From Takakia lepidozioides (Eukaryota; Plantae; Bryophyta): a stretch of DNA of 64,000 nucleotides. Made by a program: the position numbers and the translations under genes. Positions 1 through 58,717 of this stretch are shown in pieces (the first letter of the stretch is position 1; the number at the start of each line of letters is the position of its first letter). The notes beneath the pieces were generated by a model. The model saw nothing but the letters and a program-made list of their open reading frames with translations. It was not told the origin of the DNA and made no database searches. The DNA is taken from contig CM060731.1 in NCBI GenBank assembly GCA_030704615.1, forward strand, positions 92,256,001 to 92,320,000, in the 5' to 3' direction.

Positions 1-11
1 ACATTTTCTCT

Positions 12-450
12 TTGAGTGGACCGGCAGGCAAGAAGTACCGGCCACTGCGGGTCTTGTTGGACTCGGGAGCTCAGCCACTGATGTTGGGCAGAGCTGCTAT
101 TGCAGGTTTGGGCCTCATGGAGGGGGATATGGAGCCTTGTCCTTTCCAGATACAGACATCTCTGGGAGGATCAGAGCAGGCTCGGGGCATGACGCGGCAT
201 CAGTTGGCCATTAGACTGCAGCCGGATCATCCTATCGATGGCTCAATCATGCGAGCCAAGGCCATTGTGACAGACGCGGTCTCTTACGATGTCCTCGTTG
301 GTGGGGCAGTGTTATACCCCATGGGCTTCACCCTGGACTTTTGGGAGGAGTCAGCATTCTACAGGCCTGGATGGCAGTCAGGGGATGGTTGTCGTGCACA
401 GCTCCCTGTGACATTCATTGGGGGTATTGCGGCTGCCCAACGGGGCAAGA
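12..450 (+). pseudogene. Retroviral-type aspartic protease domain of the Gypsy polyprotein
   Basis: VLLDSGAQPLMLG active-site motif and YDVLVGGAVLYPMGFTLDF C-terminal motif; frameshifts into the next domain near 450. Confidence 0.88.
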
Positions 451-769: not shown

Positions 770-1730
770 GAAGGCATTTGCCTTCTGGACTTGTTTGGCG
801 GGATCAGCACCAGATTGGCTGCTGTGCTACAGGCAGGTGTGCGGGTAAGGCGTTACCTGTATGTGGAGAGGGATGAGACTACACGACGCGTCTCACTGCG
901 CCATGTTGCTCAGTTGGTACAGCAGTACCCTGCTTTGTTGCCAGTGTCTGCAGTTCGTGGATACCAACAAGCCTTGCCAGCAGACATTTCGATGCTGGGG
1001 GCGCCGGATTTGGAGCAGGTTGGCTCCATTGATCTGGTAGTGGCAGGTTGGCCCTGCCAAGGCATTCATCAGCCGGGCATGACAATGGATTGCGAGACTC
1101 GAGGACAGGTCTGTTTTGGGAGATGGTGCGGATTTTGCGCCACTTGCAGCTTCATCAAGCTGTATCACCAACATACATCTTGGAGAATGTGCCACTGATG
1201 GGCGATTCTCGGGCCAGGGTGATGGCCAGTGTGCATCAAGTCCAGTCGTGGCTTGGGTCAGCAGTGCTGCTGGATGCAGCTGCAGTGGGATCACGGGCTC
1301 ATCGTCCACGGCTATGGTGGATTAACTTGATGCCACCCGCACTGCTCAAGCGTGCATTTGATGGGGTGCCGCGGCCAACACACCTCATAGTGGACAGCAT
1401 TTTGGACACAGGGAGGCAGTCTCAACGTGTGAGACACGATGACCGTTCGCCTTTGGCAGTGGTCAACAGGGTGGGTCAACCACGAGCAGCATTACCTACA
1501 CTGCTCAGCTTCCCAGGATCCCATGCTTTTCGGGATGGTGGACCTGGCCTCCTGTAGGATGCTCAGATGCAACAGTTAGTGGAGCCTAATGCCGACGAGC
1601 GAGAGCGGGCTATGGGGTTTTCCACTGGGACCACGGCGGTGCCTTCTCTTTCTGAGGCATCACGTCGTCAGGTGTTGGGGCAAGCAATGGATCTCAATTG
1701 CTTGACCTGGATTATCAGCTTGGCTATGGC
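770..1730 (+). pseudogene. C5 cytosine DNA methyltransferase domain (DNMT3-like) inside the retrotransposon pol
   Basis: Motifs in canonical order: I LLDLFGGIS, II YLYVERD, III DIS, IV IDLVVAGWPCQG, V GLFWEMVRIL, VI YILENV, VIII LDAAAVGSRAHRPRLWW, IX ERERAMGF, X RRQVLGQAMD. One frameshift near 1063 and a TAG at 1555. Confidence 0.93.
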
Positions 1731-2181
1731 TGAGCAACGTAGAGTACGGAGTGCACTTCCCTTGACGGTCTCTCTGCCTACCAAGACGGTACAGGCAGCG
1801 AGTGGGGGCGAGCCGGTGAGGACCACGGGGTGTAGACATCCATGGCACACGTGGGAGGTACTCGAGGTTCAGAGGGAGTTGGCAGCCAAGGCAGTTGTGA
1901 TGGATGAGGTTGGGGATTCTTCTCGGGATGAGGAGGTTCTCAATGATGAGATGATGGGGCAGGATGAGGCCTTGTCATTGACTGAGCAGGAAGGGAGTAC
2001 TGCTCAAGAGGTTGCAGCATAGCAACCACGGGACGCGTCCTCTACCTCTAAGCCCACTGGACTTAAGGTTGCAGTTACGGAGGACAATTGGGAGCCTGAC
2101 ATTGGACCCATTGTCACCGGAGGAGAGAGACAACGTATATGGCGGTTCCTGAGGGCTTATAGGAATTGCTTTGCCTTCAGT

Positions 2182-3807
2182 TTGAAAGACTTGGGAGCAT
2201 TGAAGGGTCAAGAGATTCGCATTGAATTGGCCACTGACACGCCAATATTTCGGAGACCCTATAGATACAGTGACATGGAGAGGTCCTTGATTCAGATGAG
2301 AACTCAGGATCTTTGGGAGGCAGGTTTGGTGGAGCTCTCTGGTGGAGAGTATGCTTCAGCCACAGTGATGCCAGCCAAGAAGGATGTCTATGGCAATTGG
2401 ACGGAGAGACGTATGTGCGGTGATTACCGGCCTGTAAATCGTCAGACCAAGTCCGATAGGTATGCCATGCCGACACCAGAGGAGATCTTTGATGCCATTG
2501 GGCATTCCAAGGTCTTTAGCACGTTGGATTTACGATCCGGATATCACCAGTTGCCGATCAAGGAGGCGGATAAGCAAAAGACGACATTCTGGGGGATCAA
2601 TGAGCACGGGAAGGATTGCCTATACCAGTGGCGGTTCTTACCATTTGGGCTTAAAAACGCTCCCGCTGAGTTTCAAAGAGTCATGGACAGGATTCTAGCA
2701 GGGGTGGAGTTTGCTCGGTGCTACATAGATGATATCATCATCTTTAGTGCTACGGTGGAGGAGCATGAGAGACACCTTCAGGGGGTATTTGAGCGCTTGA
2801 GGATGCACGGATTGAAGTTACATCCGGGCAAGTGCAAGTTTTTCCACAACCAGATTGAGTATCTGGGTCACATGATATATCCTGGAGGATTGGGGGTACA
2901 GCAGACTAAGATAGAGTCCATTGCCCAGGTTCCACGCCCCATGGATGTGAGCCGAGTTCGAGCTTTCATGGGGTTAGCAAACTATTACAGACGGTTTGTT
3001 AAGGGATTTAGTGCCATTGCAAAGGCTCTAACCAAGCTGACCAAGGTGGACCAGGAGTGGCAGTGGGAAGATGAGCAAGAACAAGCTTTTCAAGAGCTCA
3101 AGGCGAGGTTGACCTCGGCACCCATCTTGAGACGACCTATCAGGGGGCGTCCTTTTCAGCTGCATACAGATTGGAGCATGCTGGGGCTTGGAGCGGTGCT
3201 CACACATGTGGATGATGAGGGAAGAGAGTTCGTAGTGGCTTATGCTAGCCGCTCGAACAATGCTGCAGAGTCTAAGTATAGCTCATATGAGGGAGAATGC
3301 TTAGCTGCAGTGTGGGCCGTGGCACACTTCAGGTGCTATCTATATGGCAATCTCTTCACCCTTGTCACGGATCACCAACCACTCAAGTGGTTGATGGAGT
3401 CAGACAAGCTTACGGGGAAGCTTGCACGGTGGGCACTCATCCTTCAAGAGTATGACTTTCAGGTGGTGCATCGACCGGGTTTGGTCAATCGCAATGCAGA
3501 TGGGTTGAGTCGCAATCCATGCACAAGCCAGCAGGATGACACTGGAGCTCGGTGGCATGGTGAGACGGACGAGGAGATGGTGCCCGGATGGCATGCATCT
3601 GCATTTCTGTGTATCTTGGCAGCGGAAGGCCAGGTTGGACCTGCAATAGGGATGACTGTAGATCAAGTGTCTGAGGACCCTGAGGCCAGCAATGAGCAAG
3701 GTGGCGCCAAAGATATACATGAGGATTCAGTTGTGTTGGACTACCTCCGCACTGGAGACACTGCAGCCACTATGACTGCCAAGGAGAGGGATCGGATCCT
3801 ACAATGA
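2182..3807 (+). CDS. Reverse transcriptase plus RNase H of the Gypsy element (open frame ending at a premature TGA)
   Basis: 541-aa ORF with RMCGDYRPVN, FSTLDLRSGYHQ, YIDD (2722), LHTDWS, VVAYASR, LARWALILQEYDF. Confidence 0.96.
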   Translation: MKDLGALKGQEIRIELATDTPIFRRPYRYSDMERSLIQMRTQDLWEAGLVELSGGEYASATVMPAKKDVYGNWTERRMCGDYRPVNRQTKSDRYAMPTPEEIFDAIGHSKVFSTLDLRSGYHQLPIKEADKQKTTFWGINEHGKDCLYQWRFLPFGLKNAPAEFQRVMDRILAGVEFARCYIDDIIIFSATVEEHERHLQGVFERLRMHGLKLHPGKCKFFHNQIEYLGHMIYPGGLGVQQTKIESIAQVPRPMDVSRVRAFMGLANYYRRFVKGFSAIAKALTKLTKVDQEWQWEDEQEQAFQELKARLTSAPILRRPIRGRPFQLHTDWSMLGLGAVLTHVDDEGREFVVAYASRSNNAAESKYSSYEGECLAAVWAVAHFRCYLYGNLFTLVTDHQPLKWLMESDKLTGKLARWALILQEYDFQVVHRPGLVNRNADGLSRNPCTSQQDDTGARWHGETDEEMVPGWHASAFLCILAAEGQVGPAIGMTVDQVSEDPEASNEQGGAKDIHEDSVVLDYLRTGDTAATMTAKERDRILQ

Positions 3808-5158
3808 GCCAAGAGGTTCAAGTGGGAGGGGACACACCTGCTCCGAGTGTGGGAGGATGGTCGAGTGAGGATTGTGCCTCACCCAACACAGTGGGCACGG
3901 TTACTGCGGCATGCCCATGAGGAGTTGGGGCATTTTGGGGTGCGATGCACTCATAGTCTACTGCAGGGGCAGTATTGGTGGCGTGGTATGCACACAGACG
4001 TGCAACAATTTGTGGCTAGGTGCATGGTGTGTGACAGGGTGCGTGCTTCATTCAACGCCCCTACTCCACAATTGCACCCTCTTCCGATCATGGGATTGGG
4101 CTACAGGTGGAGTCTTGACTTCGCAGGGCCATTGTCACTGACCATGCGCCACAACAAGTACATGTTGGTGATGGTGGAGCACTTCTCCAAAGTGGATTGA
4201 ATTGGTTCCATTGCCTGATAAGGCTAGTGAGGGAGCTGCGTATGCATTCTTGGATTGTGTGCTTAGCCGATTCGGTGCTCCAGCTGAGGTACTCACGGAC
4301 CAAGGGAGAGAGTTCTTGGGGGAGTTTCAGGCTTTGTGTCACAAGGCCTTGATAGACCACCGCACCACTTCTCGGGATCATCCTGAGGCCGATGGCTTGG
4401 CAGAGAGAGCTGTTCAGACAGTAAAGAGGGGTTTGCGCAAGTATGACTTGCAGAAGGGACACCTAGGAGATTGGGACCTTCAGTTATCCTGGTTAGCCAT
4501 GGGCTACAGGTTCAGCAAGCAAGCATCACTTGCCTTCTTCTCACCATACTTTCTTCTCTTTGGCCGAGAGCCGGATTTGCCTACATCCATTCACAGAGAA
4601 GCTGCTACAGTTCTTAACCTTGACGATCTGGACGTGTGGGCACGTGCATGTGAGCAACGTGCAGAGTTGTTCAAGAGAGTCATGCCCATGGCTTTCGAGA
4701 ACCTTGCCATTGCACAACACCGTGATACGTTGAGGTATGCTACCATACGTGGTGGGGGCTATCGTCCTGGGGTTCGGAGATTCAACCCTGGTGACTATGT
4801 CTATCTGCAGCAGACTGCTCCTACGACCCTGGATGTGACTGCAGGACGTGTTATTTTGAGGGTTCGAGAGGTCTTGCCTTCAGGCGTCTTGGTCTTGGAG
4901 GGTCGGGATGGCATAACTTGGAAGGACCATGTGCGTAATTGTGCGCCATGTCACCTTCCGAATGTCGATGGCAGGATAGACCCAAACTTGGCAGTGGTAT
5001 CTGCAGGTTTGAGGTGCATGTTGTGTGGGTCTGCTAGAGGGGCAGCCACCATGCTGGTGTGTGATCGATGCTCTAGAGGTTGGCATATGGGATGCTTGAC
5101 TCCACCTCTTGAGTTGGTTCCGGATGGGGATTGGTTATGTCCACATTGCATTGGATAG
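3808..5158 (+). pseudogene. Integrase (HHCC zinc finger and DDE core) with C-terminal PHD finger
   Basis: HAHEELGHFG...CMVC; WSLDF, VLTDQGREF, HPEADGLAER, SPYFLLFGR; frameshift near 4190; ends CMLC...CDRC...HMGC...WLCPHC (C4HC3, about 5015-5150). Confidence 0.94.
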
Positions 5159-5418
5159 TGGGAGTGGATACAACCATGGAAGGCTAACAAGAAATGCAAG
5201 GCCAAGCTACTAGGGGACCTTGAACACACGAGGTCTTGACTCAAGTTCATAGATTGCAAGACGGCGACTAACGATGGGGCTACTCTTGTACCCGGCCTCT
5301 TGGTCTATAGAGTTTGAGTACAACAGGGACAGTAATAGAGGACTTAGTACGGCTGTGGCTATTACATCTTGTAGCTATCTGGAGTTAGAGGGACCTATCC
5401 ACCAGCTAGGGGGGCGAT

Positions 5419-5944
5419 TGTGGTAGACTACTTTATTGTGCATATATGTGTGGTGTGGTTTGGACAGCGATGTAGTTGTGTAGCGATATGTATGCGCACG
5501 ACAGCTGTCAAGTTAATAAGCACAGTGTGAAAACAACTAGAATAAAGCTAGTTATTTGTATTTAACACTTGGATTTAGGTCAAGTGTTAAATCAGGTGTC
5601 AGGTTTAGTTTGACACCTGAACCGCCTTATCTTCACGAGAACGGCAGTCGCGTGGCTCATCTCTCTCGAGTTGAGCCTGCGCGACCGAGCTCCTTCATGC
5701 GTTTAGATTTGAGTGTGCTTATGATGGGAGTGTAGATTGTTGTGGGGTGGAGTCCCCATAGCTTGGGGTGCCCCTGGCTCGACTTCTGTTTTAACGAGTG
5801 ATGTTGAGGGATTTCATATTTCTTGTGTTGAGAGTGTGTGTCCTTTCAAGCTTTCTTATTGTGGCAGACTACTTTATTGTGCATATATGTGTGGTGTGGT
5901 TTGGACAGCGATGTAGTTGTGTAGCGATATGTATGCGCACGACA
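5419..5944 (+). repeat. 3' LTR (526 bp) preceded by a polypurine tract
   Basis: AGGGGGGCGAT at about 5408-5418, then TGTGG...CGACA. The first and last 85 bp (5419-5503, 5860-5944) are direct repeats with one mismatch. LINE-derived sequence follows. Confidence 0.8.
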
Positions 5945-8409: not shown

Positions 8410-10866
8410 GATTACATTTTTTTATTTTTTTTATTTTTTTAATACCGGAACAGGGATTGTAACCCTGATTAATTTTATTATAAATTATTGGAAGGGGAAC
8501 TATAAGGCACACACACCGTATTCAGTGTATCACGATCCAACCATCTCCTGTTGGAGATTAAGTCCACAAGACAAAAAAACCCATGTCCCTACTAAAGACA
8601 CTTACACTGTGACCAGTGTTCCACGAGCCAAAACAACTCCGCCAAAGAACCGGGCACACTGCCCAAGACCTGAGACAAAAGAGACACTTAACCTATTTGT
8701 TGTTGGTGTTTTGAAGACCATCGAGGATGACACAGAGGAGAGAGGTGATTGAAGTCATTGACCAGTGTGGATCAAAGAGAACTCCCTATCTATAGTGTAG
8801 TTTGGAAGCTGTCGTGGAGGGCTTTTGATGCTTCCAGTTGACCTCCTTTTCAAATTCCGGGGAAAGAGTGGCCGAGTGGTGCACGGAGATCTCGCCAAGC
8901 CTGTGGGGGGAGCTCGTTCCAGTTGCACTGGTCTTGCGTTAGGGCTGTTGCATATGAGGCTCTATCTGCCCCATGTGTGTTGAAAGTTCCTATGGATCGC
9001 TGCTGCATTAATGGCGACTTGTTGAATGTCTGTACAGAGTTTGCCGAGGCTTTCCTCCCCTCAGTTTGCAAATCAATGAAGATCGAGGTAGGGGAGGCAG
9101 GAAATTGTTGTAGTTTGACCACTAAACGTGTTTTTACAACGTATTTTCCACAGGTACCAAATTGAAAAAGCTCTAAGTGTTTCGAATATCGGGCACTTGA
9201 GGGCTGTATTCTTAGAGATAGGGTCATAGTTTAGCAATAGATGTGTGTGAGAGAGATCTCTGTAATTCCAGCATCTGTAAAACAATTTAACATAGGGCTA
9301 GATCTTAGCTGGAGCTTGACATGTCAGTAGACAATGTTCTAAGGTTTCCAGGACCGCCGTTGAGCAACAAGCACACATCACTGCTCCCTGGAACTGAAGC
9401 CATTCACCCACTTTGAGAACCCTATTGACTATTTGCCATAGGAAGGCTGCAATCTTTGATGGACGAGTTTTAATCCAGACAGAACCCCAGATCGTTTTCT
9501 AGTTCTTGTCTCGGAAGTTGTACAAGCCCCATCTAGATTCCCATTTTTTGCACATAGGTTGGGTTACTGACAGGGCTCTATAGCCTTTTTTTGTAGTGTA
9601 TGCAAAGAAGGGTTCTGCTGAGTTTTTGAATTTCCAGGACCATTCCAGGGGGTCAATCTCCATTTCTGCCAGGGGCCTGCCGAGAATCCATACAAATGAG
9701 TTGGTTGCCAACCAAGCCCTAGTGGTAAAAGTGGGTGGAGGCTGGGGATTCATGGCTTTGTCTGGGGCTGTCCAGCAGCAAACTCTGACTGGAGTAAGAG
9801 CCATAGTTGGTAAGCTTACGGGTTCTGGAGAGGTAAGTGAGAGTCTAAGTGAAGTGGTATTGATGGTGAAGGTGTAAGCCGAGATATCGTTCGTGGTGAT
9901 GTCATCTACAAACAAAATAGTAAGTTGGTTTTGAAGTACAACGAGGGCCCAAGACTTTGGGGTTGGTTCCGGAGGGCCAGAGGAAAGGGTAGAGAGCCAT
10001 TGTGCCGAGATAGATTGAATGATCTGTTGATGGCCTTTGGATGCTCGTGCAACTCCAACATCTTGAGCTACAGATTCCTAAGTTCAGAGAGTGTTTCCTG
10101 TCCATAAGTTATGTATCTGTCTGATGCCCAGACAGTCCCACTTGGACCATCTCTTAGCCTGGTTTTTCTGGTAAGGGGACAGAGGGGTATTGTTTAAGAA
10201 CATATGTTGTCTTTTGATTTCATAGAAGTTGTTTGGCTGGACTTTGATGAGCAGCTTCCTTAGCTGCCCCCAAGCCTGCCAAATACTTGTCCAAAGAGCG
10301 GAACCTACTGACTTAAGGTTGAAACCTTGCGTGAGCCATCGAAGAGAAGGGCTTCACTGGGCTGTTTTAAGGGGGGATGAATTGACAATGTGGTCGTAAA
10401 CCAAGAACTTCCACCAACCCCCTTCAAGACCAAGAAATCAGGGAATCCATTTGCCTAGGAGTGCAACAATCTGGGTCTCGGGATCGAGAACCCCCAACCC
10501 CCCTTTTTTTTGGGCAAGCAGATTTGCGCCCAAGCTACCAAGGGCCTTTTGTTTTGGGTGCTGGCCTCTGCTCCCCAAACAAAGTTTATGAGAAGACGTT
10601 TTATCTCCTGCATCTGTTTGGAGTTCGATCGCCAAGAGGAAGCATAGTACCACAATCCAGAAGAATGAGTTTGAAGGGCTCTACCTACAATAGAAAGGTG
10701 TTTTGATCCCCAATATGTCAGTTTCCTCTTTAGTTTGGCCAGTGTAGAGGCAAATATTTGCTGATCCGTAAGGTTGATTCCGTATGTGTAACCCAGTAAG
10801 GTGGTTGTCTCACCAGGTTTGAGCCATTTCAGCCCTTGATCCACTCCCCAAGAGGGAGGTGTTCCC
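8410..10866 (-). mobile_element. L1-like LINE, 3' part of ORF2, 3' UTR and A-rich tail (decayed)
   Basis: Minus-strand peptides LLGYTYG, KLKRKLTYW..KHLS..GR, LVAWAQICLPKKKGG, zf-RVT region, LRAFSIWYLWKIRC; T-rich tract at about 8416-8440 is the tail. Confidence 0.88.
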
Positions 10867-12847
10867 ATGGTGGACGCTGTCAGGTCACCTACCAGCAGCC
10901 CCGAAGTTTTATTCCAGTTGATTTTACCAAGCTTTAAACAGGGTCTCCTGCAAGCTTGGACTCAAGCTGGAAACGATCACCTCGACCCAACACAACTCTT
11001 CCTAGCCAAACTGAAGGCTGTTAACATTGAAAGCCAAAGGATGAGCCATGAGCTAGCAAAAAATAGAAAGAAAAAGGTAGTGGCATTAAACAAGTGCCTC
11101 AAAATTTACAAGTCAAAACTAGAATCCACCCGCTGTGATGAAGACACCTACCGTACTTATGTTCAAGCCAGGAACAATTTGGATATCCACCATAAGATTC
11201 AAGAGAGAAAATGGAAATTGCAGGTAGGTGTTTACTCGTCTACAAAAGGGGAAAAAAATGAATAAATACTTCTTTGAAAAGACAAGGTTGCGACGCGCCT
11301 CCCAGATTATATCGGAACTTATAGAACAACCCTCTGGCGAAATACCTTAAATACCTTTTGTGCAGCCTTAAGGAGGAGGTTATTGATTTTGTAGAGGCCT
11401 CTGCCCCGTTTGTAAGAGTCAGGTAACACCTGAATCTTAGGGGGTGTTTGGCTTTGGAGATTATGGAAACCACAAAGGCTGCTTGTGTTACCCCATTGAT
11501 ATTCAGGAAGAGAAAACCTCCGGCCATTCTGATCACATCAGATGACTTCGAATGTGTTGACTCTTTATGGATAACTTCTGCAGATGTCAAGCATTATGTG
11601 CAATCCAACCCTCCCAACAGTAGCCCAGAGGTTTTATTTAGGGATAAGATTCAACAACTCTTACAGAAACACCAGAAGCACTACTCTCTTTCACCACTCA
11701 CAAAAATATCGTGGGGAGCATACCTGGAAGATCACCCCAAACCCTCAACCCACCTTCCGGCCCTTGTGGAGGATGCATAAATCTACGCATCCCCTCCACT
11801 AATACAAGCCATCTGGACTTACGAGGAGCCTGTTATCTGCACCAAGAGGAAGTCACAAACTACAAATTCGTTACCAGGACACTTTAGTGAATGGAGTTAC
11901 TGGGAGCCCACTTGGACTCAGAGGTGGATGGGAACAACTACAGAATGGAGGTCCAAAGGACCAGGGAATACATTAATGGTAACAAACAGATAGTACACTC
12001 GCCACTGAATCCTCGGAATCCCAAGTGGACTCCTCCACACAAGAAGGCAATATCAATCACTTCGACCAGGAGGTCAGAACTCTGCACACATCAACTATCC
12101 TGGACACAACCCACGCCAACTCGTAGGCTGCTTCCCAAGTGACTTCTCCACCCAGGGCTTTAACACCCTCTTCCCAACCTTCTCCTATCAAGGTGCCATC
12201 CTCTCCCTCTCCCTGTTTCATTTATCAAGTATTACCAGGAAGCTCCAATAGATGCTGGATGTTGTGCGGTAGAGGGAAACATTCTAGGGGGAAGCAGGAA
12301 AGGTACAGGCTGCCAGTTTTTGACTTGCCAGATAGCATACCCTCAGGGACTCTGCCCTCTAATGGCTCACTCTTGCAGAGATATCCTGGATTTCTTACCC
12401 TGTACTCAGCTGACTTCTTCCCTATTGGAGTATCCATTCTATCAGTTACCAATTATACGGTGTCTACAGAACAGTTCATATCCTCCCCAGAGAACCCCGT
12501 CTGGGCAAACCAAGAGCAGTTTTCATACTCATTCAAAAGAAGACCCGAAAACCCCCAGACAACTTCGTCTGGGTCAACTCTTTGCGACCAAGAGACCGTA
12601 GGGTCAAATTCATTTACCAAGTAACTAGGCCATCATATGAGACTATCAGTCTAAGCCTACCACTGCCAATCAATGATCTTTGACCTCCACTCGTGGAACA
12701 TCAGAGGGTTGGGTTCTGACCCGACTTCTCTAAAGAGATTGAAAATCAAAACTTGGCTGGCCTCCTTCCTGGCAAATCACTCCATCATTTTCTTTCAGGA
12801 ACACAAAATAGACCAAGGAAAAATTGATAGCCTGTCAGATTATCTAT
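10867..12847 (+). mobile_element. Inverted LINE segment: post-endonuclease coiled region, spacer, and start of the ORF2 APE endonuclease
   Basis: 10867-11265 resembles the helical region after the L1 endonuclease; 12673 onward reads SWNIRGLG...IIFFQEHK...SDYL and stops at a CACTA end. Confidence 0.75.
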
Positions 12848-16050: not shown

Positions 16051-16712
16051 CCCAAAATTCGACAACATCAATATTTTGACAAATTCCTTTCTGTAGGAGG
16101 GGGATTGCTAAACCATGAGCAGAATTCTGCTCACGCTTCTGGATGTGCTCACCTATAACCGCGGACACCTATTCGGCTTAGAGGACCTATTACTGCGGGT
16201 AGTGTCCAGTATAACATGCATATCAATTCATCGTTATGGATGAATGACGGATGAATGATGGATGAATGGACGATGAATGTATGTTGGACGAATGGCACAT
16301 GGATGAATGTAGTTTGAGGTTGAATGCAAAATTAAAAAGCATTTTAGAGTAGTGGTTGTCAAATCCCCCGAGCTCCAGAGTGAATATCTGCCAACTGCAG
16401 AGGGTTGTGGTTGTCTTTTCACCAGGTATCCTAAGTCGAGAGAGATGCTGACACCCAATTGCAAAGAAGGTGGAGAGGCCGTTTGGTGCTTTAATAGAAA
16501 TTGTTTGAAAACAGCCGATTCATTCCGACGAAGAATATCCACTGCTACTGGAGTCGGAATCCAAAACGAAGGCAGAACTGTCTATGAAGACACTAGCCTT
16601 GCTCTGCACAAAATCCTCTGTGTCGTAAAGCACATGAGGGAGAGAAGAGAAGCGAAGAGACTAAATTTGCAAGCTGCAGCCTCCGCATAACATGACATCT
16701 GAAACGTCTTCT

Positions 16713-16873
16713 GGTGTGCTATTTGGGGTGAATGGCATCTACAAATTGTTCGGACCACATAACTTATGATTTGTTGTCATGTCCTTCTTCCATGTGACCA
16801 GAAATCCATGATGGGTAAACGCTAGGTCTTTTGCTTGCAAAGCAGGAGTTGGGTTCATTTGCAAGTTTTCCAA

Positions 16874-16904
<31 letters not shown>

Positions 16905-17997
16905 TTTCCCCAAATGTGCCAGATTAAGGTGTCGTTGACGACACCTTAATCTGACTGGTTTTTTGGTGTGTTATTTGGGGTGAATGGCATCTACAAATTG
17001 CTCAAACCACATAATTTATGATTCATAGTCATGTCTTTCTTCCATGTGACCAAAAATCCATGCTGGGTAAACGTTAGGTCTTTTGCTTGCAAAGCAGGGG
17101 TTGGGTTCATTTGCAAGTTTTCCAAAAAAAATAAAAATATGTATATTTATTATTTTATTATTTTATTTTTCCCCGAATGTGCCAGATAAAGGTGTCGTCA
17201 ACGACACCTTAATCTGGCTAGTCTTTTGGTGTGCTATTTGGGGTGAATGGCATCTACAAATTGTTCGGACCACATAACTTATGATTTGTTGTCATGTCCT
17301 TCTTCCATGTGACCAGAAATCCATGCTGGGTAAATGCCAGGTCTTTTGCTTGCAAAGCAGGGGTTGGGTTCATTTGCAGGTTTTCCAAAAAAATAAAAAT
17401 AAAAAATAAAAAATTTAAGTTTTTATTTATTTATTTATTTTATTTTTCCCCGAATGTGCCACTTAATCTGGCTTGTCTTTTGGTGTGCTATTTGGGGTGA
17501 ATGGCATCTACAAATTACTCGGCTTATGATTCGTTGTCATGTCATTCTTCTTGACCAGAAATCCATGCTGGGTAAACGCCAGGTCTTTTGTTGCAAAGCA
17601 AGGGGCTGGGTTCATTTGCAAGTTTTCACAAAATAATAATAAAATAAAATAAAATAAAATATTATTTATATTTTATTTTCCCCGAATGTGCCAGATTAAG
17701 GTGTCGTCAACGACACCTTAATCTTGTTGGTCTTCTGGTGTGCTATTTGGGATGAATGGCATCTACAAATTGCTCGGCTTACGATTCGTTGTCATGTCCT
17801 TCTTCCAGGTGACTAGAAGTCTATGCTGGGTAAACGCCGGGTCTCTTGCTTGCAAAGCAGGGGTTGGGTTCATTTGCAAGTTTTCCATAAAACAAATATA
17901 TATATGTGTTTTTTCCCTCTGAATGTGCCAGATGAAGGTGGCGTTGACGCCAGCTTGATCTGGCTGGTCTTTTGGGCGGAATTAAGCTTCCGCCAAA
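16713..17997. repeat. Tandem array of five ~255-bp units, most ending in a 34-bp palindrome
   Basis: Units start at about 16713, 16965, 17228, 17482 and 17737 (GGTGTGCTATTTGGGGTGAATGGCATCTACAAATT...); palindrome CAGATTAAGGTGTCGT-NN-ACGACACCTTAATCTG, e.g. 16920-16953. Confidence 0.95.
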
Positions 17998-24838: not shown

Positions 24839-27800
24839 ATGGTAGTTGAGATATATCACCGCATGCACAAAGAGAAGAAAGAAATGGAAAGGGAAAACGG
24901 GGAGCACCCTCTCGGTCATCGCCATTCGCCTCAGCAAGACAACCGACAACAAGGCCAAAATGAATTCGATGAGAAAATATCGACGTCAGGCACTCTCCAA
25001 AGTGCCTCTGTTCAATTGGACATGCCGAACGGAGAGCTGGCTTCTACCTTAACGACTCATGTTTCGCCTTCTATTGCGGCGGCAGCGTCAAGCCCGAACG
25101 ATTTTGTGGAAGTGGATGATGCTAAGAACACCATCAACTTGTCAAATAAAATCGATGGTTTCGAAAGAAGACACGAGGACATGAATACTCTATCTATAAA
25201 AGATTGTACCTCAGATCTCGACGAATCAGTTAGAATGGAGTCAGAGATCCTGAGAAACCCCAATTCAAGAAAAGACTCGTCAAAAGAAAACAGAGCCGAA
25301 GCTGGCCTGTTAAGACCACTCCTAAAACTAGGTTCGAAGTTATATGAGCTTGAAAACTTGCAAGACAGTTGTGATGATGACATAGACACAGATATGCAAG
25401 TTAAACAAGCCAGCCCACCCCACGATACCCAGTGCGCCACAGCTTATGCCCACATTCAAACCATGTCGGACGATACGCAAACAGAAAAAGTGCACTCCCC
25501 GAAAGCTGGACAAGAGACTTCTTCCCATGTTGAGCACAGGGAAACGGAGGAGGTCACCCAAGCTGCGGAGAAGATTGAAGATGCAATAGACAATGGCCAG
25601 GGAGCCATGCAGCTGCCGGGGACGAATAAAAGTCCAGACCAAACATTCCAACCTGCCGAGGCCGCACAAGAAGACAGCGCCCAAGCAGGTGTCAGCCCAG
25701 TGGGGAAGACTGAGCTTGAGCGAGAGATGGAACTGTATGAAGCGTCTGAAAGAGACGAGCAGGTACGCCTGCTCGCACCCATGCGGCCGGATCAACGGGA
25801 TTTGCAGATGGACGAACAGCTCGTGGTGAAGGATCCCCAGAATGACAAGAAGCGCGCCCTGGAGAGCCCGTTGCAAGATCGCCAGAAGAAACGAGGCAGG
25901 AGGATCCAAGCGCCTGACGAGAAAAAGAAAGAAGAAGAAGATGTGTGTTTCATTTGCTTTGATGGTGGCGACCTTGTGCTGTGTGATCGAAGGTATGAAT
26001 CTTCCGCAGGACATCTTAGAAATTGTGGACTCTGACGACGTCAGAAAGGCTGCTCTGCTTTGCCTAAGAACTATCAGGGATGATATTAAGCTGAAACTCC
26101 TGGATTCCTACAGTCAAATATGTCATGACATTGATGTAGCAGGCTTAGTGTTGTTACCTCTACTATCATTTTTTGACATTTCTGAACAGCTCAAATTTGT
26201 CACTTTTTATGGTTTTCTAATTTCTAGTTGGGGAGGAGAGTATGTGGTGGCTGTATCCAACTGATGTGACTTTGGTGGAACATGTTTGTGGCAGATCTTG
26301 TCCAAAGGCATATCATTTGAACTGCATTGGACGTGATTCAGCCTTTTTCAAGAAGAAGGGAGCTTGGCTATGTGGTATGTGATTCCAAATCTGACAGAAG
26401 CTCTTGTAGTGGTTAGGTGTATAAACCATACCTTGCTTCATGATCTCACTGCCTATCAGTCTGTGTGTTTTGAAAGAGCATCTTGTATAAGTTGAGGCTA
26501 GCAACAATAACCTTTCTTCTTGGTTCATGTGATGGGTACTATATTGTCCTTCCATTGATGTCATGATAAGTTGTTACAGCAGTCTTATCAGGATCTCGAA
26601 ATTGTCTTTGAGTTTTAATCTGTGGATCTGGTGGAGCAAGATTGTGGAAAATGTCGAAACTGGAGGAAACTGGGGCTTTCGTAGTCAAGTCTGTAGTAGC
26701 CATCAGAGAGAACTCTCTAGGGTTGACTGTACTGATTCCCTTCCATATTTCCCTTATATGTTGCTCTGATTGTCATTTGTAATTCTCTGGTATTCGGACT
26801 TGTTTATGTAGGCTGGCACTTTTGCTCGGTGTGCACAAAGCCAGGCAGTTTTCAATGTTACACCTGCCCCACTGCGTACTGTGGAAATTGTGTCAAAGAG
26901 GCTGATTTCCTGCTGTTGCGGAAAAGGAAAGGGTTATGTGAGGAATGTCTGCCAGTCGTGAGCATGATTGAGCACAATGAAACTGTAAATGCAGAAGGGG
27001 TATGCACTGCTCCTTTACTGCTATTGCTGATTGAAGGGGCAAGTTCCAGACAAAGGAGGTTTTGTCTAGCATAGGCAAATGTATTCCAAGTCCAATGTGT
27101 CATGGGCACAGTCAGTTAGGCTCTGGTGGGATATATTAAAGAGGTTAGCTTTTGATGTGTCTCATGGTCTCTTATTGCTTTGCACATGGTCCACTAGAAG
27201 TTTTTTCTTGACAACGCATCCCTGTAGCATTGATACAACTTCCAGTACAAATGGTAGCACTGTTATAGTGGTATGTTCCAGAAGCTTATGATTTGTTGTG
27301 TTCATGGAAGTTGCCAGGATGTTGCAGTGCATGTAAAGACATTCTCAGGTCAGTCTTGGTTTCCGGACTTGTTGTAGGGGAGTGCTAATTTTGCTGATGA
27401 CCACAGGTGGAAGTGGATTTCGAAGATCAGGAGACATATGAGTGTTTGTTCAAAGAGTATTGGGGGGATCTCAAGGGCAAGCTATCCTTGACATTGCCAG
27501 AGATAGATAAGGATGGGAAGGCTGTGGAAGGGATCGATATGGATGTAGGGGACGTTGGATCAGACACTGAAGATCACACCGACAATTATGACTCAGGTAC
27601 TGATTCAGAGAAAGCCCCGGAGGAGGCTGATCAGGATGAAAGTGAAGCTGAGGATGAGAGCGAAGGGAATAGGGAAGTAAACGAGGGTGTCCCTGTCTTG
27701 TCTCAGTATAGTGAACAAGACATGGAGCCAGATGAAGTTGATGGTAACAAAGAAGATAAGCATGAGGATGAGTTCCAACCCCCAAAGATCGAAAGTTGGG

Positions 27801-30800
27801 CATCGAAAGAGCTTTTAGAGTTTCTCGTGTTCATGAAAGAGGATCCAAAAAAACCTCTCACAAGGTTTGCTTTCACAAAATTGCTGTGGGCATACATCAA
27901 GCGCCAGAAACTCCAGGACCCTCGCAAGAAGAGCCAAATTGTTTGTGACGAACGACTACGCAACATATTTCGGAAAAAGATTGTGGGACATTTTGAAATG
28001 TTCAAGGATCTTCAAATGCATTTTCCTCCTAAAGGCTCTGTTGGTGCCACAAAGAGCGGAGGGGGTGCTAGCAACACTGATGAACGATTGGGTGCTAAAG
28101 ACGACACAGTGGTAGTAGATGGCATTGACGATAAGCTGAACCGAGGCTCAGGCAAGGATAAGCGTAAGGGACGCAGAAAGTTGGATGAGGAGAAGTTTGA
28201 GAGACCAGATAGCGATCAGTATGCGGCTATCACTCCCAAAAACATCAATCTCATATATTTGCGGAGGACACTAATGGAAGATTTATTGGACGATCCTGAG
28301 TTCCATAATAAGGTGGTAGATACATTTGTGAGGATTCGTGTCCCAGGAATGACCAGTAAGACGGAGATGTGCTACAGACTTGTACAAGTCACAGGTAATT
28401 CCAGGCTACAGGAGCAGGTCCTTGAATTCTTTGATGGTTTTGTGCTCTTACTGTGGTGATAAAGGTTTGGTGCTGTTGTTTCTCATGTCAGTCATCTTTT
28501 TTCCATCTTTTCACAATACAGGGACAAGATCACAGGCAGAGCGGTACAAGGTTGGGAGGAGAACAACGAATGTGGTTCTGGAGATCTTGAATCTTCAAAA
28601 GAAAGAGGATGCAACAATTGACCTAGTTTCAAATCAGGACTTCAACGAGGTCAATCTAACGTGATCTCAAATACTGGGCATTTGTTTACCATTACAATGC
28701 TTTATGTTTTGACAACAAACTCAGCGCATCTGCACCCTATGTTAGGAACTGAAGAAGTCAGTGGGGAGTTATTTATAACAGCTCATCTCTGATGTACATG
28801 ATGTAGTTGATTGTCTCATGCTCTTGGATTGACCCCCTAAGTGATGAGAGGCAGCATCTTCCCTTTTTTGTCTTTGTTTCTTCTCCTTGAGGTTTTTGTC
28901 TTGGGGTCTTTGTTTTCATGTCGTATGCTCTTCTTTACCTTGGATGTGGCTATCTTTTGAACTTCGGTTACCTCTCAAATGTGAGTTCAGAGTTTACTTG
29001 GCTCTCACATTGATTTATGTTGTGTGTGTTGATGATGCATTGGCACTTGTCCAGCTTAAGTCTTGTGGTAAGAGTTGTTGTAGATACAACATGAGGTTTC
29101 TATGAATCCCAGTCTTCCACCGTCTTGTTGGAATGCATATAATGCTTATGATACCTTGTAAAGCTAGCCATGTACAAAGTCAAACCTAAATTTATTTTCT
29201 CAAGCTCATTTTGAATCATTCTTTTGGTTGTTGAAAATAGTTGTCAGATTCATTTCAGCAATTGTGTTTGGTTGTCGTCACAAGTGTGATGAAGATGTAG
29301 GTTGTCTTAGTTTATCCGTGATTTATTTTCTTTGCATGTGAGAGTGCAGATTGTTAGGGACTTCAATGGGCCTGTTATGGTGGATGCAGGAGGAGTGCCA
29401 ACGGTTGCGCCAGAGCATCAAATGTGGGTTCATCAAGGCCATGACTGTGGTATGTACCACTTTCTGTTGTACGCAGCTCCCTTGGTACTGCTTATCTGAA
29501 CTTGTCTTTGCTTTCCAACATTTTGTTTTGTTAATCCTATAGGACAGATCAGTGCAAAAAGCATCATGGAACCAATTTAGGGTTACTTTCCATGTAAACC
29601 CATTCCCGTTACATGACGTCATCCAAAAATGGGTTTGACCACGGGTCACATCCACTCACACCCCTTTCCATGCACCACCATGGAACGGGACCCGTCCAGT
29701 GGTTTCCACCGGCACTTTTGCACGTGTGTGACCAAAAAAGTGTGTCGAGGAAATGTGTCGAGGAAATGTGTCGAGGAAGATGACCTATTTAGCAAGTCAT
29801 GGGAGGAAAAACACTGGCTAGTGTAGGTCAACCATGGAGAACGGGACCCGTACGCCCAACGCCTCACCAAAAGTGAGGGCTCCGCTGCATGGGACCCGGC
29901 CAGGCCCTGCACGGGTCTCGACATCGGGAAGTGCATGGAACGGGGTGCCTGGACCCATTCTCTCTTCGTGTGACATCAGCAGAACGGGAGAACGGGTCAC
30001 ATGGAAAGTAACCCTTAGTCCCACCTTTCTAGAAGTTCCCAGTATGTCAATATGAGTGTCCATGAATGGACCATGAAAGTCCTGATCCCATGTCCCTCCT
30101 TGGTAGACACATACATCATTATTCACTTTTTTTTCTCATAGTTGTATATATAATATTGGTTTGTCCTTTAAGACGGGTACTTGCAAATGTTAACTTGAGC
30201 TTCTACAGGGCCAACTGGAGGATAAGGCCATTGCTTTGCAGGAGGCAAAAGTCAATGATGTAAGCCATTACTTTGTTTCTTTTGACACAGAAAGGAATGG
30301 TGAAAATTTTGGCTGTTCCTGCACGACTCTTTCTTGGATCAAGCCTGCCTTCTTCGTGATTGTCTCAGTTGATGACTGCAAGTCAGTTGCTTGATGACCA
30401 TTGGTTGCTGCGCAGTTTGAACTGTTCACCTGAAATGGATCTGTTTTACAGCAGATGCTCACTAATACAAAGAATAGTGTCATTGTGCTATTCTCTTTTG
30501 CTTACAGTGCTGTGATACTTGTTGTGCTGGTTCAACCTTTTCTGCCTTTCACTGAAAGCAGCGGTTCGTGTATTTGTGCAGTGGTTTGAAAATGAGCGGC
30601 AGCGGCTGATCAACCTCAGAGATCGCGCAAGTGAGAAGGGTCGCAAGAAAGAATATCCTTCCTTTCCTAGTAGTTCATTTTGTTTGTGTTGGTCGGTGGT
30701 GTTGGGAGTTCTGCTTTGCGGCGGTCAGTACTTGCATTGTTGGAGTTGCATGGGGTTCCTTATGTGTTTTAGCAATCTTGTCCATATATCAGAGGACTGC

Positions 30801-32828
30801 TTTAGACTTTCCTGATAGAGTAGATTGTCTGTTGGGCGCTCCTGATTTTGGCTACTCAATACAGCTAAACTGAGGATGTCTGGTAGGGTAATGGTTATGA
30901 TATTGTGCTTTGAAATGGCCGGAGGTGTTTTCAGCATATGAAAAGGTAGTGCAATTGGTTTGATATGGTGATTAAGTGCTTGTCTGGTATCCTTGACCAG
31001 AATCCCTTTATTACATTGAGGGAGTGTGTGGAGAAGTTGCAGGAGCTTAGCAGCCCGGCGTTTCGGGCTGCAAAGCTGCAGGCAAGACCTGAAGTCAGTG
31101 CGGATCCACATATGGACCCTGCATATGAGTCTGACGTGAGTGATGGCAAGCCAGTTTCAGGTCTGCATCTGTCTCCCTTGTCTCTTGATGCTTTTGAATG
31201 AAGCTAAATGGAGTTTGAAATTTTCAAATTCACTACCACTTTGGTAGCAGAACCTTATTTCTGGTCTTTTCCTGGATGTCTCGGAAGTTTCTGGCTCATG
31301 AACACATCCTGATACTGCATATTATTGCGTACTGAATCCTGGAAGCATTCAATCTCAATCTTAGTGTACATGTACAACATGCAGCACCGTTCCCAGAACA
31401 ATGATGGAATAAGACATTCTGAACCTTGCATGTGGTTTGGCAAACACTTGGGTGGAAACTTTTCCAGGGAGCACTTGGGAAAAGGAGTCTGGAAGTGCAG
31501 ATGTCTCAGGAAGAGTCGGCTGGGAAGACACCAGTTTCTATGGAAAAAGAGGGGATTCTGATATCCATAGGTCTAAGCCTTCTGTTTGGGATGATAAACC
31601 TCGCAATAGAGATGTGGGTCGTGGCGGTTATGAATCAGGTCGATCTGGTGAGAAACAGTTATTGCGAAGTGATGCAAATTATGGTATGGATGATGAGAAG
31701 CCTCATGGCAGTAATGAGAAAGAAGGGACTAAGGTTTGGGACAAATACTGGGCCAGAGATCATCCACAAGAACAAGATCGTGATCGAGGGGATGGATATA
31801 GGTGGAAGGACAATGGTGGAGGGCACATTGAGCAGCGGGATGATGATGTGACCGACGCTAAGTTTGACTATCAAAGTGGGGTCACCCCAGTCTTTGATCA
31901 GCTCAATTCTGATTGGGGTGTAAAAGATGTAGTGGCCCCAGCTCCTTCCCTTCCAGCTGCATCTAATTTGGGATATGCCGCAGCCATGCCAAGTGTTTTG
32001 AGTCAGTCGGCCCTAGAGACCATGGAGAAGGAGAAACTGTGGCATTACCAGGACCCTAGTGGAACCATTCAGGGGCCCTTTTCAATGGAACAATTAAGGA
32101 AGTGGAATACCACAGGGTTTTTCCCTCTTGACTTGAAAATTTGGAAAATTGATCAGTCTCGCGCCACTTCCATTCTACTGACTGAGGCCTTGGAGGGAAG
32201 ACTTACGAAAAAGACAGATCCCTGGACAGTAAGTGCAATGGGTGGATTTGGTGGCAGTGGTAGGGAATTTGGGGGTGGCTCTTCATTACCCAGGCCCAGC
32301 AATGCCTGGCGTGACAACTGGGGGGGTACCACTCGGGAGAGTGGCCGAGAGGCAGGTGATATAGGAAAGTGGGGTGCAGAGAGTGGCGGGCGAGTTGAAC
32401 CAGGTCGTTCTATTCGCTCCGCTGACTGGGATGCACGTGACACTAGCGCCACTAATGATCGAGGCAGCGACTGGGGCCATGGTCGAAGCAGCTATGGTGC
32501 GTCTACCCCCACAACTGGCAGAGCAGAGGACTGGAGTGCTCCTCGGTCCTCTGGGGACAATAATGGCTGGGGTTCCCCCCACAAGGGAAGAGGAGAGAGT
32601 GGTAGTTGGGGTTTGCAGGACAACAGTGGCAAGGGTGCGGGGAGGTCCAGTTGGGCACGTAGCTCCAGTCGTGATTCCAGTGCTATTGGGTCCTGGAAGG
32701 ATGCCACTGGCCGGGATGGGTCTCGTCCTTCAAGGGGACCAAAAGGCTCTAAGAAAGACATTCCTTGCAGATTTCACCAGAAAGGATTTTGCCGAAGAGG
32801 TGAGACCTGTGAGTTCTGGCATGGGTAG
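24839..32828 (+). CDS. NERD: NERD-like zinc finger CCCH protein (PHD, SWIB, Plus3, GYF, WG/GW repeats, CCCH), 10 coding exons
   Basis: Exons 24839-25992, 26295-26374, 26812-26999, 27407-28394, 28522-28649, 29390-29449, 30209-30259, 30582-30652, 31015-31160, 31468-32828. Motifs EEDVCFICFDGGDLVLCDRR, WASKELLEFL, LWAYIKRQKLQDPRKKSQIVCDERL, INLIYLRR, WHYQDPSGTIQGPFSMEQLRKW, CRFHQKGFCRRGETCEFWH. The start codon could be a later ATG. Confidence 0.93.
29580..30014. mobile_element. PIF/Harbinger Tourist-like MITE in a NERD intron
   Basis: Perfect 16-bp TIR GGGTTACTTTCCATGT / ACATGGAAAGTAACCC, TTA duplicated on both sides, 435 bp, non-coding. Confidence 0.92.
30653..31014 (+). other. U12-type (minor spliceosome) AT-AC intron
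   Basis: 5' site ATATCCTT at 30653, branch point TCCTTGAC at 30990-30997, terminal AC at 31013-31014; splicing joins RASEKGRKKE to LRECVEKLQ in frame. Confidence 0.93.
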
Positions 32829-33414: not shown

Positions 33415-34380
33415 AGTTTTTTTTTCTTTTTATACAGAACAGGGGACAGAGGCCCTGGTTAAATTTTATTTAAAACTTATTAAGGAGAAAAAATTTAAAA
33501 CCCCGGTTACACCATAAGGCACACCGTAGTCAGTGCGGGTGACTTCAAAATGGTTGAATCCCCTGACGATAGAAGGGGTTCTACTCACCTTTCACAGGCC
33601 AATGACGACGCTAACCAATGTCTCTCTCTCTCTCAAAACCACAACATTGCTGAATCCTTCCCTCTGACCACCAGCTCCCCTACCTCCCCTTCCCCTCTTT
33701 GCACATGGTCAAACAACCGAGACTTGTATAATCTGCAAATGGCTAGACTCGACAGGGTTTATACCTCCCTTAACATTGCACAGTGGGTTAAGAGGAACCC
33801 TCAAGACCCCATCCTTCAGGGGTTCGACCGTGCACTTGTCTCTTGGAAGCAGATCTGCCTCCCAAAAAAAATGGGAGGCCTACTGGTTCAAATTCCACCT
33901 AAGCTTTACTCTTGGCAGCATCAGAGCCTCTTCAAGACTCTTCTGCACGGGTTTCTTCGTGATAATTTTAGAGCTAGGTGGATCGTAAGGGTCCTTGGTT
34001 TCTCTTCACCCTCGTGAAGGGGCATGACTAAAATCCAGCTATCAATGTAGTTAGATTCATGCATTTTGCCATCCAGGGTTGCCCAGAAATCAGCCCGTTC
34101 AGCAGGGTCATTTGGGGCATAGATGTTAACCAAGCCTAGGGAGCCTGCATTGTTTGAGATTAAGTGCACAGAACTGAAGACGTCCTGGGATCCAAAGCTG
34201 TTCATCAGAGATAAGAGGGAAGATTGAGGGGGACAGGAGAATGGCTGTCCCTCCTAACGATCCTTTTGAGGTAGGTTTCCAAAGGGTCTTGTCTTTGGGC
34301 TAGAGTTGGTCAGTGAGAGAGTGGATTTTGTGCAGATCGAGTTTGTGTTCCTGGATAAAGATGATGGCACTACAAGCATT
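33415..34380. mobile_element. Scrambled LINE remnant (3' tail on minus, endonuclease pieces on both strands)
   Basis: 33415-33540 is similar to the LINE tail at 8416-8530; plus strand CTWSNN...ARLDRVY and LVSWKQICLPKKMGGL; minus strand IFIQEHK and LVNIYAPNDPAERADFW. Confidence 0.8.
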
Positions 34381-34900
34381 CGTAGATTGGAAGAACAAGT
34401 CATCTACCAATATGGTACACCAAAGATTGTTCTGACAGACCAAGGAACAGAGTGGGGGAAAGAGTTTGAGGAGGTATGCATACAACACGACCGCTCGGCA
34501 CCCTATTGGCCACAAAGCAATGGAATGGTGGAGCGCATCATCAAGTCACTCAAGCAAAGCATTCGGGTTCTAAGTATACAAGGGAACAATGAGTGGGACT
34601 GAGACCTCTACAAAGCTTTGTTCAGGTACACAGTCAAGGTACAAACATCAACACGGTTCTCACCATACAAAGTGTTCATAGGAAGGACTTACTCATGGAT
34701 GTTGACAATCGCTGGGTACGAATCACCGAGCTAGTGAACTTGAACGACGGAGAAAAAGACATAAAACCAAATGATGAGAGAAAAGGTGGAGCTCTTAGCT
34801 CAAATCGACGTCGCACTCCATGAGAATGTACTCAAAGCGCAGAAGGAGCAGTAGGAGAGTTACGCAGCTCGTAGAACGAGCAACTCCACCCTGGAATCGC
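34381..34900 (+). mobile_element. LTR retrotransposon integrase core fragment
   Basis: VIYQYGTPKIVLTDQGTEWGKEF...APYWPQSNGMVERIIKSLKQ. Confidence 0.85.
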
Positions 34901-48639: not shown

Positions 48640-48830
48640 TGATTACAGACACAAGCAGCACACACAAAGGTCTTTTTGGGTTGATGGTCGACCAAATCCT
48701 CTATGGGTCATGACACAAGGTCAAGGACAATCTAGTGAGGGCACCTTCTTCTTCGACCTATTTCAGCCTGTTTTGTCCTCTCATCAGACTCGGCCCTGAG
48801 CTGCATATTGAATTCTGTAAGTTAGCTCGT
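48640..48830 (+). pseudogene. PDF-motif gene fragment homologous to Pack-CACTA cargo
   Basis: DYRHKQHTQRSFWVDGRPNPLWV, then GCACCTTCTTCTTC.ACCTATTTCAGC...GTAAGTTAGCT, matching the reverse complement of about 15290-15380 and 15800-15890. Confidence 0.7.
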
Positions 48831-49180
48831 TACCTGGAATGGATGAAATTACTGTTGAATTTTACAAAGCTCTGTGGCCTGAAATCTCGGGGGACTTTAC
48901 CGCAATGGTTAATAATCTGTTCCTCCAAGGTCACTTGCCCCCCTCTTATGTCACAAGGGGTTATCACCTTACTGTGCAAAAAAAGGGATAGGAAAAACAT
49001 ATCTAACTACCGGCCAATAATCTTTTTTAACCTGGCATACAAAATAGTAGCTAAGGCGCTGGCCCTCAGATTACAACCTCTCCTTCTTTCCATCATAAGG
49101 CCAAATCAAACAGGATTTATAAAGAGGAGGTATATTCTTGATAACTTGCTTCTGGCCCAAGAGATTCCAGCTCAAGGCTA
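48831..49180 (+). mobile_element. LINE reverse transcriptase N-terminal fragment
   Basis: PGMD..TVEFYK, ITLLCKK...NYRPI...AYKIVAKALALRL...NQTGFIKRRYILDN. Confidence 0.9.
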
Positions 49181-58600: not shown

Positions 58601-58717
58601 ACAAGACATCTACGCTTAACTAGATCTGTATGAGTTGTGTATAAGTGGGAGAAGTACTGCAGTCAGGGAAAGACGTACAGGTGCAGGGGAGGGGAAGGTG
58701 AGAGCGGTTTAGGAAAT

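Follow-up and report, generated by a model that had tools for sequence, protein, structure and literature searches.

The first 5.9 kb of the window (the whole stretch of 64,000 nucleotides of Takakia lepidozioides DNA that was analyzed) are the 3′ portion of a Gypsy retrotransposon whose family encodes a DNMT3-type cytosine methyltransferase (DNMT) ahead of a conserved stop codon, with the reverse transcriptase (RT) behind it. The assignment to this family and the DNMT3 identity of the enzyme are virtually certain. As an explanation of the whole, a leaky-stop Gypsy-DNMT3 family whose packed enzyme would methylate the element's own cDNA has, in our judgment, a slightly better than even chance of being right.

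Domain Order and Decay of the Window Copy

The window element is a dead, decayed Gypsy copy. Along the forward strand Pfam recognizes, in this order, a weakly matching protease, a DNA_methylase domain that exceeds its cut-off, RT, RNase H, integrase and, at the C-terminus, a PHD finger (Table 1). Gag and the 5′ repeat lie outside the window, because the element begins before its first nucleotide; with Gag supplied by related loci, the order is that of Ty3/Gypsy elements, GAG-PROT-RT-RH-INT, with a DDE integrase. The Pfam order and the motifs at 785-1692 confirm that a C5 methyltransferase domain lies between protease and RT on the same strand, as an initial annotation of this DNA had described. 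That annotation had also held that the domain is interrupted by breaks like those in the other domains, which stands for the frameshift near 1060 and the stop at 1555-1557 and fails for the stop at 2020-2022, a conserved feature of the family and not decay. The remaining damage consists of frameshifts near 464 and 4189 and a stop at 3805, the integrase region of this copy being broken at 3805-3807 and near 4189. The placement of the methyltransferase "inside pol" has to be given up for this lineage: here the DNMT lies outside the RT frame and closes the Gag-protease frame before the conserved stop. From GQAMD to the end of that frame there are 114 residues in the window and 93-106 in eight relatives (P0001, P0007, P0010, P0011, P0014, P0017, P0021 and P0027), the other 31 of the 39 relatives being partial, lacking the GQAMD motif or ending elsewhere.

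Table 1. Features of the Gypsy-DNMT3 element in the window (positions counted from the first nucleotide of the window)
Feature	Position	Strand	Basis
Aspartic protease domain, DSG at 60-68	3..419	+	Pfam gag-asp_proteas E 0.0097, under cut-off; 59% identity to Marchantia P0011 residues 619-758
DNMT3-type C5 cytosine methyltransferase, motifs I-X	776..1740	+	Pfam, PDB matches, relatives; frameshift near 1060, stop 1555-1557
Linker, poorly conserved, closes Gag-protease-DNMT frame	1741..2019	+	Ends of database relatives
Conserved UAG followed by CAA CCA (TAG CAA CCA in the DNA), matching the type I readthrough motif UAG-CAR-YYA	2020..2028	+	Run variants; related loci; motif from the available part of PMC3542737
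Reverse transcriptase including N-terminal region, YIDD 2722-2733, same frame as DNMT	2092..2880	+	Pfam RVT_1 E 4.5e-32
RNase H	3064..3453	+	Pfam RT_RNaseH E 2e-35, plus RT_RNaseH_2
DDE integrase, H2C2 zinc finger, D-35-E spacing at 4298/4403	3886..4560	+	Pfam Integrase_H2C2 E 1.2e-16, rve E 6e-7
PHD finger, C-terminal on integrase	5015..5149	+	Pfam PHD E 1.9e-10
Polypurine-tract-like stretch immediately before repeat B	5408..5417	+	Conserved in related loci
Repeat B, copy 1, 87 bp	5417..5503	+	Self-BLAST of the window; 98.9% identical to 5858-5944
Palindromic B/A junction GACA-GC-TGTC	5500..5509	.	Shared with L039 and L003
Repeat A, 3′ copy (by position; 5′ copy outside window)	5506..5857	+	Layout A-coding-B-A-B of L039
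Repeat B, copy 2, element 3′ end	5858..5944	+	Contig depth drops beyond about 6000

Elsewhere, the window holds exons with SWIB, Plus-3, GYF and CCCH domains at 27401-32825 (+), a domain set that we take to be that of the plant NERD protein; a FLZ zinc-finger gene at 58634-59590 (+), whose domain is, to our knowledge, land-plant-specific and which, like the nearest named proteins, speaks for a land-plant host, probably a bryophyte; and, at 62507-64000 (-), a long acetyl-CoA-carboxylase-like open reading frame that is cut by the window end and contains a carboxyl transferase domain (E 2e-130). Further repeats include an unrelated integrase-core remnant at 34336-34686 (+), with 29-33% identity to the Gypsy-DNMT3 family; RT-like remnants, probably LINE, at 48714-49178 (+, RVT_1 E 1.5e-6) and about 9200-11300 (by eye); a DUF4218 match at 52464-53174 (-), presumably typical of CACTA transposon remnants; and degenerate tandem arrays, found by self-BLAST, at 16697-17975 (unit about 250 bp) and 53816-54480 (about 105 bp).

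The Methyltransferase Is of DNMT3 Type

Every motif that the initial annotation named was found in its place on the forward strand and in the unpermuted I-X order: LDLFGGIS (785-808), GWPCQG (1046-1063), ENV (1183-1191), HRPRLWW (1300-1320), ERERAMGF (1597-1620) and LGQAMD (1675-1692); the catalytic Cys, ENV and RxR are all represented. A check against the Pfam DNA_methylase model bears this out, the middle piece of the window sequence passing PF00145 at 27.1 bits against a cut-off of 22, and matches in the ESM Atlas are PF00145 clusters only. Two window pieces have DNMT3A as their top PDB match, weakly (E 0.026 and 0.17). Closeness to DNMT3 in profile and fold was established on P0004, an intact relative 71% identical to the window pieces, and on an alignment of relatives. 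P0004 matches DNMT3A at E 6e-12, in an alignment that pairs the ERVFGF and RQRLLG words and so upholds the DNMT3-like wording seen in the initial annotation, and a profile of 57 relatives ranks DNMT3A (E 1.5e-26) ahead of DRM (2.7e-16) and M.HhaI (3e-9). With the predicted structure of P0004 (pLDDT 93), 32/32 rows among the Foldseek matches listed are DNMT3 complexes, and a wide structural search (VIA-align) gave DNMT3B a Z of 28.8 (rmsd 2.6 over 278 residues), with lower scores for M.MpeI (Z 25.3), DNMT2 (Z 21-22) and DRM2 (Z 9.7). By profile and fold the domain is thus closer to DNMT3 than to DRM, DNMT1, DNMT2 or bacterial enzymes.

Catalytic and SAM-site residues are retained across the family. 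In 57 aligned relatives there is no variation at the catalytic Cys, at the Glu of motif VI or at one Arg of motif VIII, and across loci the SAM-site Phe is kept in 48/48 and the Glu in 48/51; a regular-expression count of the catalytic Cys across loci was too loose and was left unused. No host DNMT3 genes were returned among the homologue-search matches, and the DNMT tree described below was built without host DNMT3. A viral donor is not supported: two of four viral-contig scans were empty, and in each of the other two the single match was a weak one to a phage-type methyltransferase (32% in one scan and 41% in the other, limited to short stretches).

The Family Occurs in Several Bryophytes and Evolves Under Purifying Selection

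Relatives of the window element support the proposed land-plant lineage of DNMT-carrying Gypsy elements. Among longer proteins there are 39 homologues, mostly 60-69% identical, and the named ones come from Marchantia polymorpha, Calypogeia fissa and Sphagnum. A metagenome scan yielded 59 loci, several of which are one insertion from different samples, and the longer ones are ordered Gag-protease-DNMT-RT-RH-integrase-PHD; the scan was seeded with the DNMT, so that copies lacking it could not appear. The organism from which the window comes has the family in great abundance: in run X1, 66,222 of 3,038,600 contigs map to the stretch, with DNMT bins covered like RT bins and coverage dropping past the element end, a contig depth that is a sign of abundance and not a copy number.

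Selection on the enzyme resembles that on RT. Between the window and three related loci (L003, L004 and L014), dN/dS is 0.07-0.10 for DNMT and 0.07-0.09 for RT, rough values because dS is near saturation, and in the least saturated pair (L047-L057) it is 0.13 and 0.10. Close decayed copies show 0.4-0.7, as expected after insertion. The initial annotation had named neutral evolution and intron remnants as findings that would count against it; a DNMT dN/dS near 0.1, with RT alike, indicates purifying selection, and no intron remnants were found, the window DNMT being collinear with intact relatives.

Among the best 150 of 1.84 billion representative proteins, together with 7 added proteins, 62 display the DNMT alone, and the context-bearing matches are retrotransposon polyproteins of two layouts. 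The first, protease-DNMT-RT, has Closterium as its named member; the second, RT-RH-DNMT-integrase, is found in the chlorophytes Scenedesmus, Haematococcus and Cymbomonas. The DNMT tree places the two layouts on opposite sides (SH-aLRT 95, a quick tree, as is the DNMT tree wherever quoted here), with Closterium DNMTs on the same side as the leaky-stop family, and in the RT tree the second layout forms a single clade (99). Its separation on both trees suggests that the DNMT moved or was captured twice. Three Klebsormidium RTs, compared by RT alone, are about 50% identical and form a separate branch of the RT tree. The second layout is common among the matches; single-frame examples of RT-RNaseH-DNMT-integrase(-PHD) include L058:131-3898, P0210, P0386 and P0390, and the DNMT stands behind RNase H in 30/31 newly collected proteins.

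A Conserved Stop Separates DNMT and RT

No variant of the stop at 2020-2022 is listed in four sequencing runs. Over positions 1930-2110, runs X1, X5, X7 and X9 gave 22 variant rows (at least 3%), none of them at 2018-2028; 1,663 X1 contigs entered this comparison, and the contig of organism B differs at 11 other places and nowhere in 2018-2028. The contig of run X7 is gap-free over 1648-3820; as X7 is at most presumed to be RNA, this contig is given no weight on expression or splicing. Neighboring breaks, by contrast, are private to the window copy: 98% of X1 depth has other sequence in place of the stop at 3805 (among the substitution rows listed, 40 of 554), the three window frameshifts are absent from 23, 46 and 25 X1 contigs, and relatives are open at the stop site at 1555. 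The stop at 2020-2022 is therefore not a product of decay. Of the 42 loci in which both the end of the DNMT and the beginning of RT are present, 41 carry an in-frame stop 54-75 nt ahead of RT, and in L031 Gag through DNMT occupies a single frame of 1,297 codons that contains one stop.

The bases behind the stop are constrained as well. The window and 5/42 loci, these from three further subfamilies, have UAG-CAR-YYA in the frame of the ORF that follows. The hexamers are CAA CCA (window, L031), CAA CTA (L051, L052), CAG TTA (L047) and CAA TCA (L057, and also L059, which is without RT), so that across divergent subfamilies the amino acids after the stop vary and CAR-YYA is kept. Counted over all junctions, exact CAR-YYA occurs at 6/43 and CAA-YY not followed by A at 34/43 (32 of them CAA CCC), with TAR as the first triplet at 2. 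The largest subfamily, which is peat-moss-like, reads CAA CCC ATG, with the final A missing and an in-frame ATG right behind.

RT and integrase could also be reached by splicing across the stop, as in Ogre, or by a restart of translation behind it, as has been raised for Tca2, the TAG then being a splice acceptor or a plain terminator. A restart would find an ATG at codon 3 after the stop in the largest subfamily and at codon 5 in two others, and both routes gain from Tca2, whose junction alone did not direct readthrough according to the available part of PMC2194720. TAA replaces TAG in 7/31 copies, in line with the G-to-A decay that other TAG triplets undergo as background (0-35%), so that an acceptor role is still allowed. 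However, splicing requires neither the constraint of six post-stop bases as CAR-YY(A) nor the frame, which is kept in all six linker lengths (288, 330, 342, 351, 402 and 411 nt); the linker is out of frame in 8/43 copies, all from the decayed largest subfamily. The 60 nt upstream of the stop, only 20-33% T, also argue against an acceptor. A restart is harder to reconcile with the other subfamilies, where the first Met past the stop lies at codon 48, 85 or 117 (85 in the window) behind conserved coding sequence: 41/59 window codons ahead of the first Met are identical to L031, and the conservation of the codons between stop and Met implies that they are translated. We regard splicing or restart as unlikely; readthrough of the conserved stop is, from the pattern of these sequences, likely.

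The stop is not required in every lineage. On the DNMT tree the leaky-stop rows group together in a single clade (SH-aLRT 97); the RT tree does not unite them, with L047 apart across unresolved forks. Some forms are fused and have no stop (P0039, P0086, P0172 and P0313), and in P0086 (820 aa), where the DNMT is fused to RT, the RT groups as sister with those of Calypogeia P0061 and P0123. Land plants may thus hold both stop-separated and fused designs.

Split Terminal Repeats and Insertion

In place of two whole terminal LTRs, the family has split repeats, and L039 preserves the full layout, A-coding-B-A-B. Repeat B follows the purine tract and begins TTGTG, and repeat A ends CA. The internal B/A joint, GACA-GC-TGTC, repeats words of the outer ends, L039 beginning TGTCA and ending GACA. 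Exact 4-bp target duplications are present in 4/5 related loci and a TG start in 4/5; among these five loci L039 is complete and the other four are rearranged or end at the first B, and the window holds only the 3′ end. By eye, no tRNA-type primer site was evident beside repeat A in L039 and L003. These repeats and junctions fit a DDE integrase that would cut a circular copy at the internal palindrome.

Copies of the form A-coding-B with an intact 4-bp target duplication also occur (L020:5967-14606, L037 and L018). They are either inserted one-repeat circles or the result of later recombination between two B copies.

Proposed Mechanism and Alternative Roles of the Enzyme

We propose that reading frame 1, Gag-protease-DNMT3, would be the major product and would terminate at the conserved stop. 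Because the DNMT lies upstream of the stop and is joined to Gag-protease, it is likely made in bulk, and RT-RNaseH-integrase-PHD would come from occasional readthrough, perhaps a few percent. The DNMT would be packed into the particle in bulk, where the protease would free it and the other domains, and it would there methylate the element's own new cDNA before insertion. The integrase would open the circular copy at the internal B/A palindrome, and the PHD finger may read chromatin. That the enzyme is active and works mainly on the element's own cDNA seems to us somewhat likely, judging from its conserved residues and its place in the frame. A broader reading, possible and in our view doubtful, is that the gag-pol boundary has moved behind DNMT3, giving a capsid-level enzyme and a premethylated circular copy opened at the palindrome, and that part of the methylation of bryophyte transposons, perhaps also of the host, is written by such elements and not by MET1, CMT or DNMT3. 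In the window, the element has no extra CpG loss (CpG observed/expected 0.52 vs. 0.53 in the flank), and CpG/CHG depletion gave no signal.

The enzyme might instead do most of its work once the element has inserted, or in trans, with the target site, other copies or host DNA as substrate, guided by the integrase-PHD or by abundance. Enzyme made in bulk ahead of the stop would far exceed what a single cDNA calls for, a PHD finger sits on the integrase, and in moss the host enzyme DNMT3b has de novo activity on CG and CHH in heterochromatin (PMC6453930, available in part). Yet the DNMT is joined to Gag, hence in the particle with the cDNA, and not to the integrase side of the stop, and we give this role a small share of the probability. 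The fold could also have been kept for binding or RNA methylation and not for methylation of DNA at C5, a role compatible with the lack of extra CpG loss and with KnitGypsy-Dnmt3, which gave no methylation in yeast in a test that its authors deemed inconclusive (available text of PMC5890265); we think it improbable, since catalytic Cys, Glu and motif VIII Arg are invariant, the SAM-site Phe is kept in every locus counted and the Glu in nearly all, and the best folds are DNA enzymes, above the score for DNMT2. Finally, a host DNMT3 transcript might have been captured once and carried neutrally. The DNMT is broken in the window copy, the metagenome scan was DNMT-seeded and the tree is without host DNMT3, all of which leave room for such an event. 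Against it, the DNMT occupies the same position in liverwort, peat-moss and Closterium elements, its dN/dS is about 0.1, it is intronless and collinear with intact relatives, and its best far-reaching matches carry other retrotransposon domains; a one-off neutral capture is largely refuted and has a very low probability. Methylation of the element's own cDNA by a particle-borne enzyme is the role that we prefer.

Implications

Hosts fight retrotransposons mainly by cytosine methylation. Why retrotransposons should carry a methyltransferase of their own is a question that dates from 2018, in known hosts that are hard to work with. Marchantia polymorpha, a model species for genetics, harbors the family and has Gag-protease-DNMT gene models that look intact, among them Mp_4g09160, so that the question can be addressed in this liverwort. 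From the conserved stop one would predict a demand for much enzyme, which narrows the possible mechanisms in a way that the fused form of algae does not. Anyone surveying the methyltransferases of bryophytes has to reckon with additional DNMT3-like gene models from these elements, and readthrough, if true, would add a plant retrotransposon to the verified plant cases.

Comparison with Known Systems

Most relevant among other retroelements and host enzymes is KnitGypsy-Dnmt3 of Klebsormidium nitens, described by de Mendoza et al. in 2018 (PMC5890265) and termed streptophyte Gypsy-DNMT3 in bioRxiv 10.64898/2026.05.21.726589, both sources being available in part. SymbioDIRS-Dnmt3 of Symbiodinium likewise has a DNMT3-type domain in a retroelement polyprotein and split direct repeats, and its enzyme methylates CG de novo in yeast; unlike the window family it has a tyrosine recombinase in place of a DDE integrase, and it is described as an independent capture (available text of PMC5890265). 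Ogre differs in using an intron of about 274 bp, and the accessible part of PMC6317226 lists extra domains of Ogre without a DNMT. Plant host DNMT3, such as Physcomitrium DNMT3b (PMC6453930, in its available part), belongs to the same enzyme family and has the same unpermuted motif order, whereas the window-family DNMT has no introns and is embedded in a retroelement. DRM2, which is permuted, matches far worse.

The stop finds its counterpart in plant viruses. Tobamoviruses, benyviruses and pomoviruses use the type I readthrough motif UAG-CAR-YYA (PMC3542737, PMC2754532), readthrough in TMV is about 10% (PMC2754532), and as of 2009 the verified plant cases were all viral (PMC2754532), as far as the available parts of these papers go. 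The window family shares with them the stop, the six following bases and a plant host. It differs in that readthrough here would be predicted to set the ratio of Gag-protease-DNMT to RT-integrase, and in that the largest subfamily lacks the final A.

In openly accessible papers and the available text of PMC5890265, whose figures and main supplement may give the domain order, we found no description of a land-plant Gypsy-DNMT3 or of a leaky-stop version. The accessible part of PMC12344493 cites KnitGypsy-Dnmt3 as streptophyte, and its supplementary table has no Marchantia, Sphagnum or Anthoceros row. On the available text of PMC5890265, the window family agrees with KnitGypsy-Dnmt3 in its Gypsy domains, its intronless and unpermuted DNMT3-type domain, purifying selection and a DIRS-like A-coding-B-A-B structure. 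The DNMT of KnitGypsy-Dnmt3, however, shares one ORF with RT and RNase H, whereas that of the window family ends the Gag-protease frame before the stop, in a land-plant host in which the family is very abundant. The conserved stop between DNMT and RT makes the window family a variant of the KnitGypsy-Dnmt3 kind and not a plain member: the Gypsy-DNMT3 kind has been known since 2018, and the land-plant family with its DNMT before a conserved stop is new to the literature covered.
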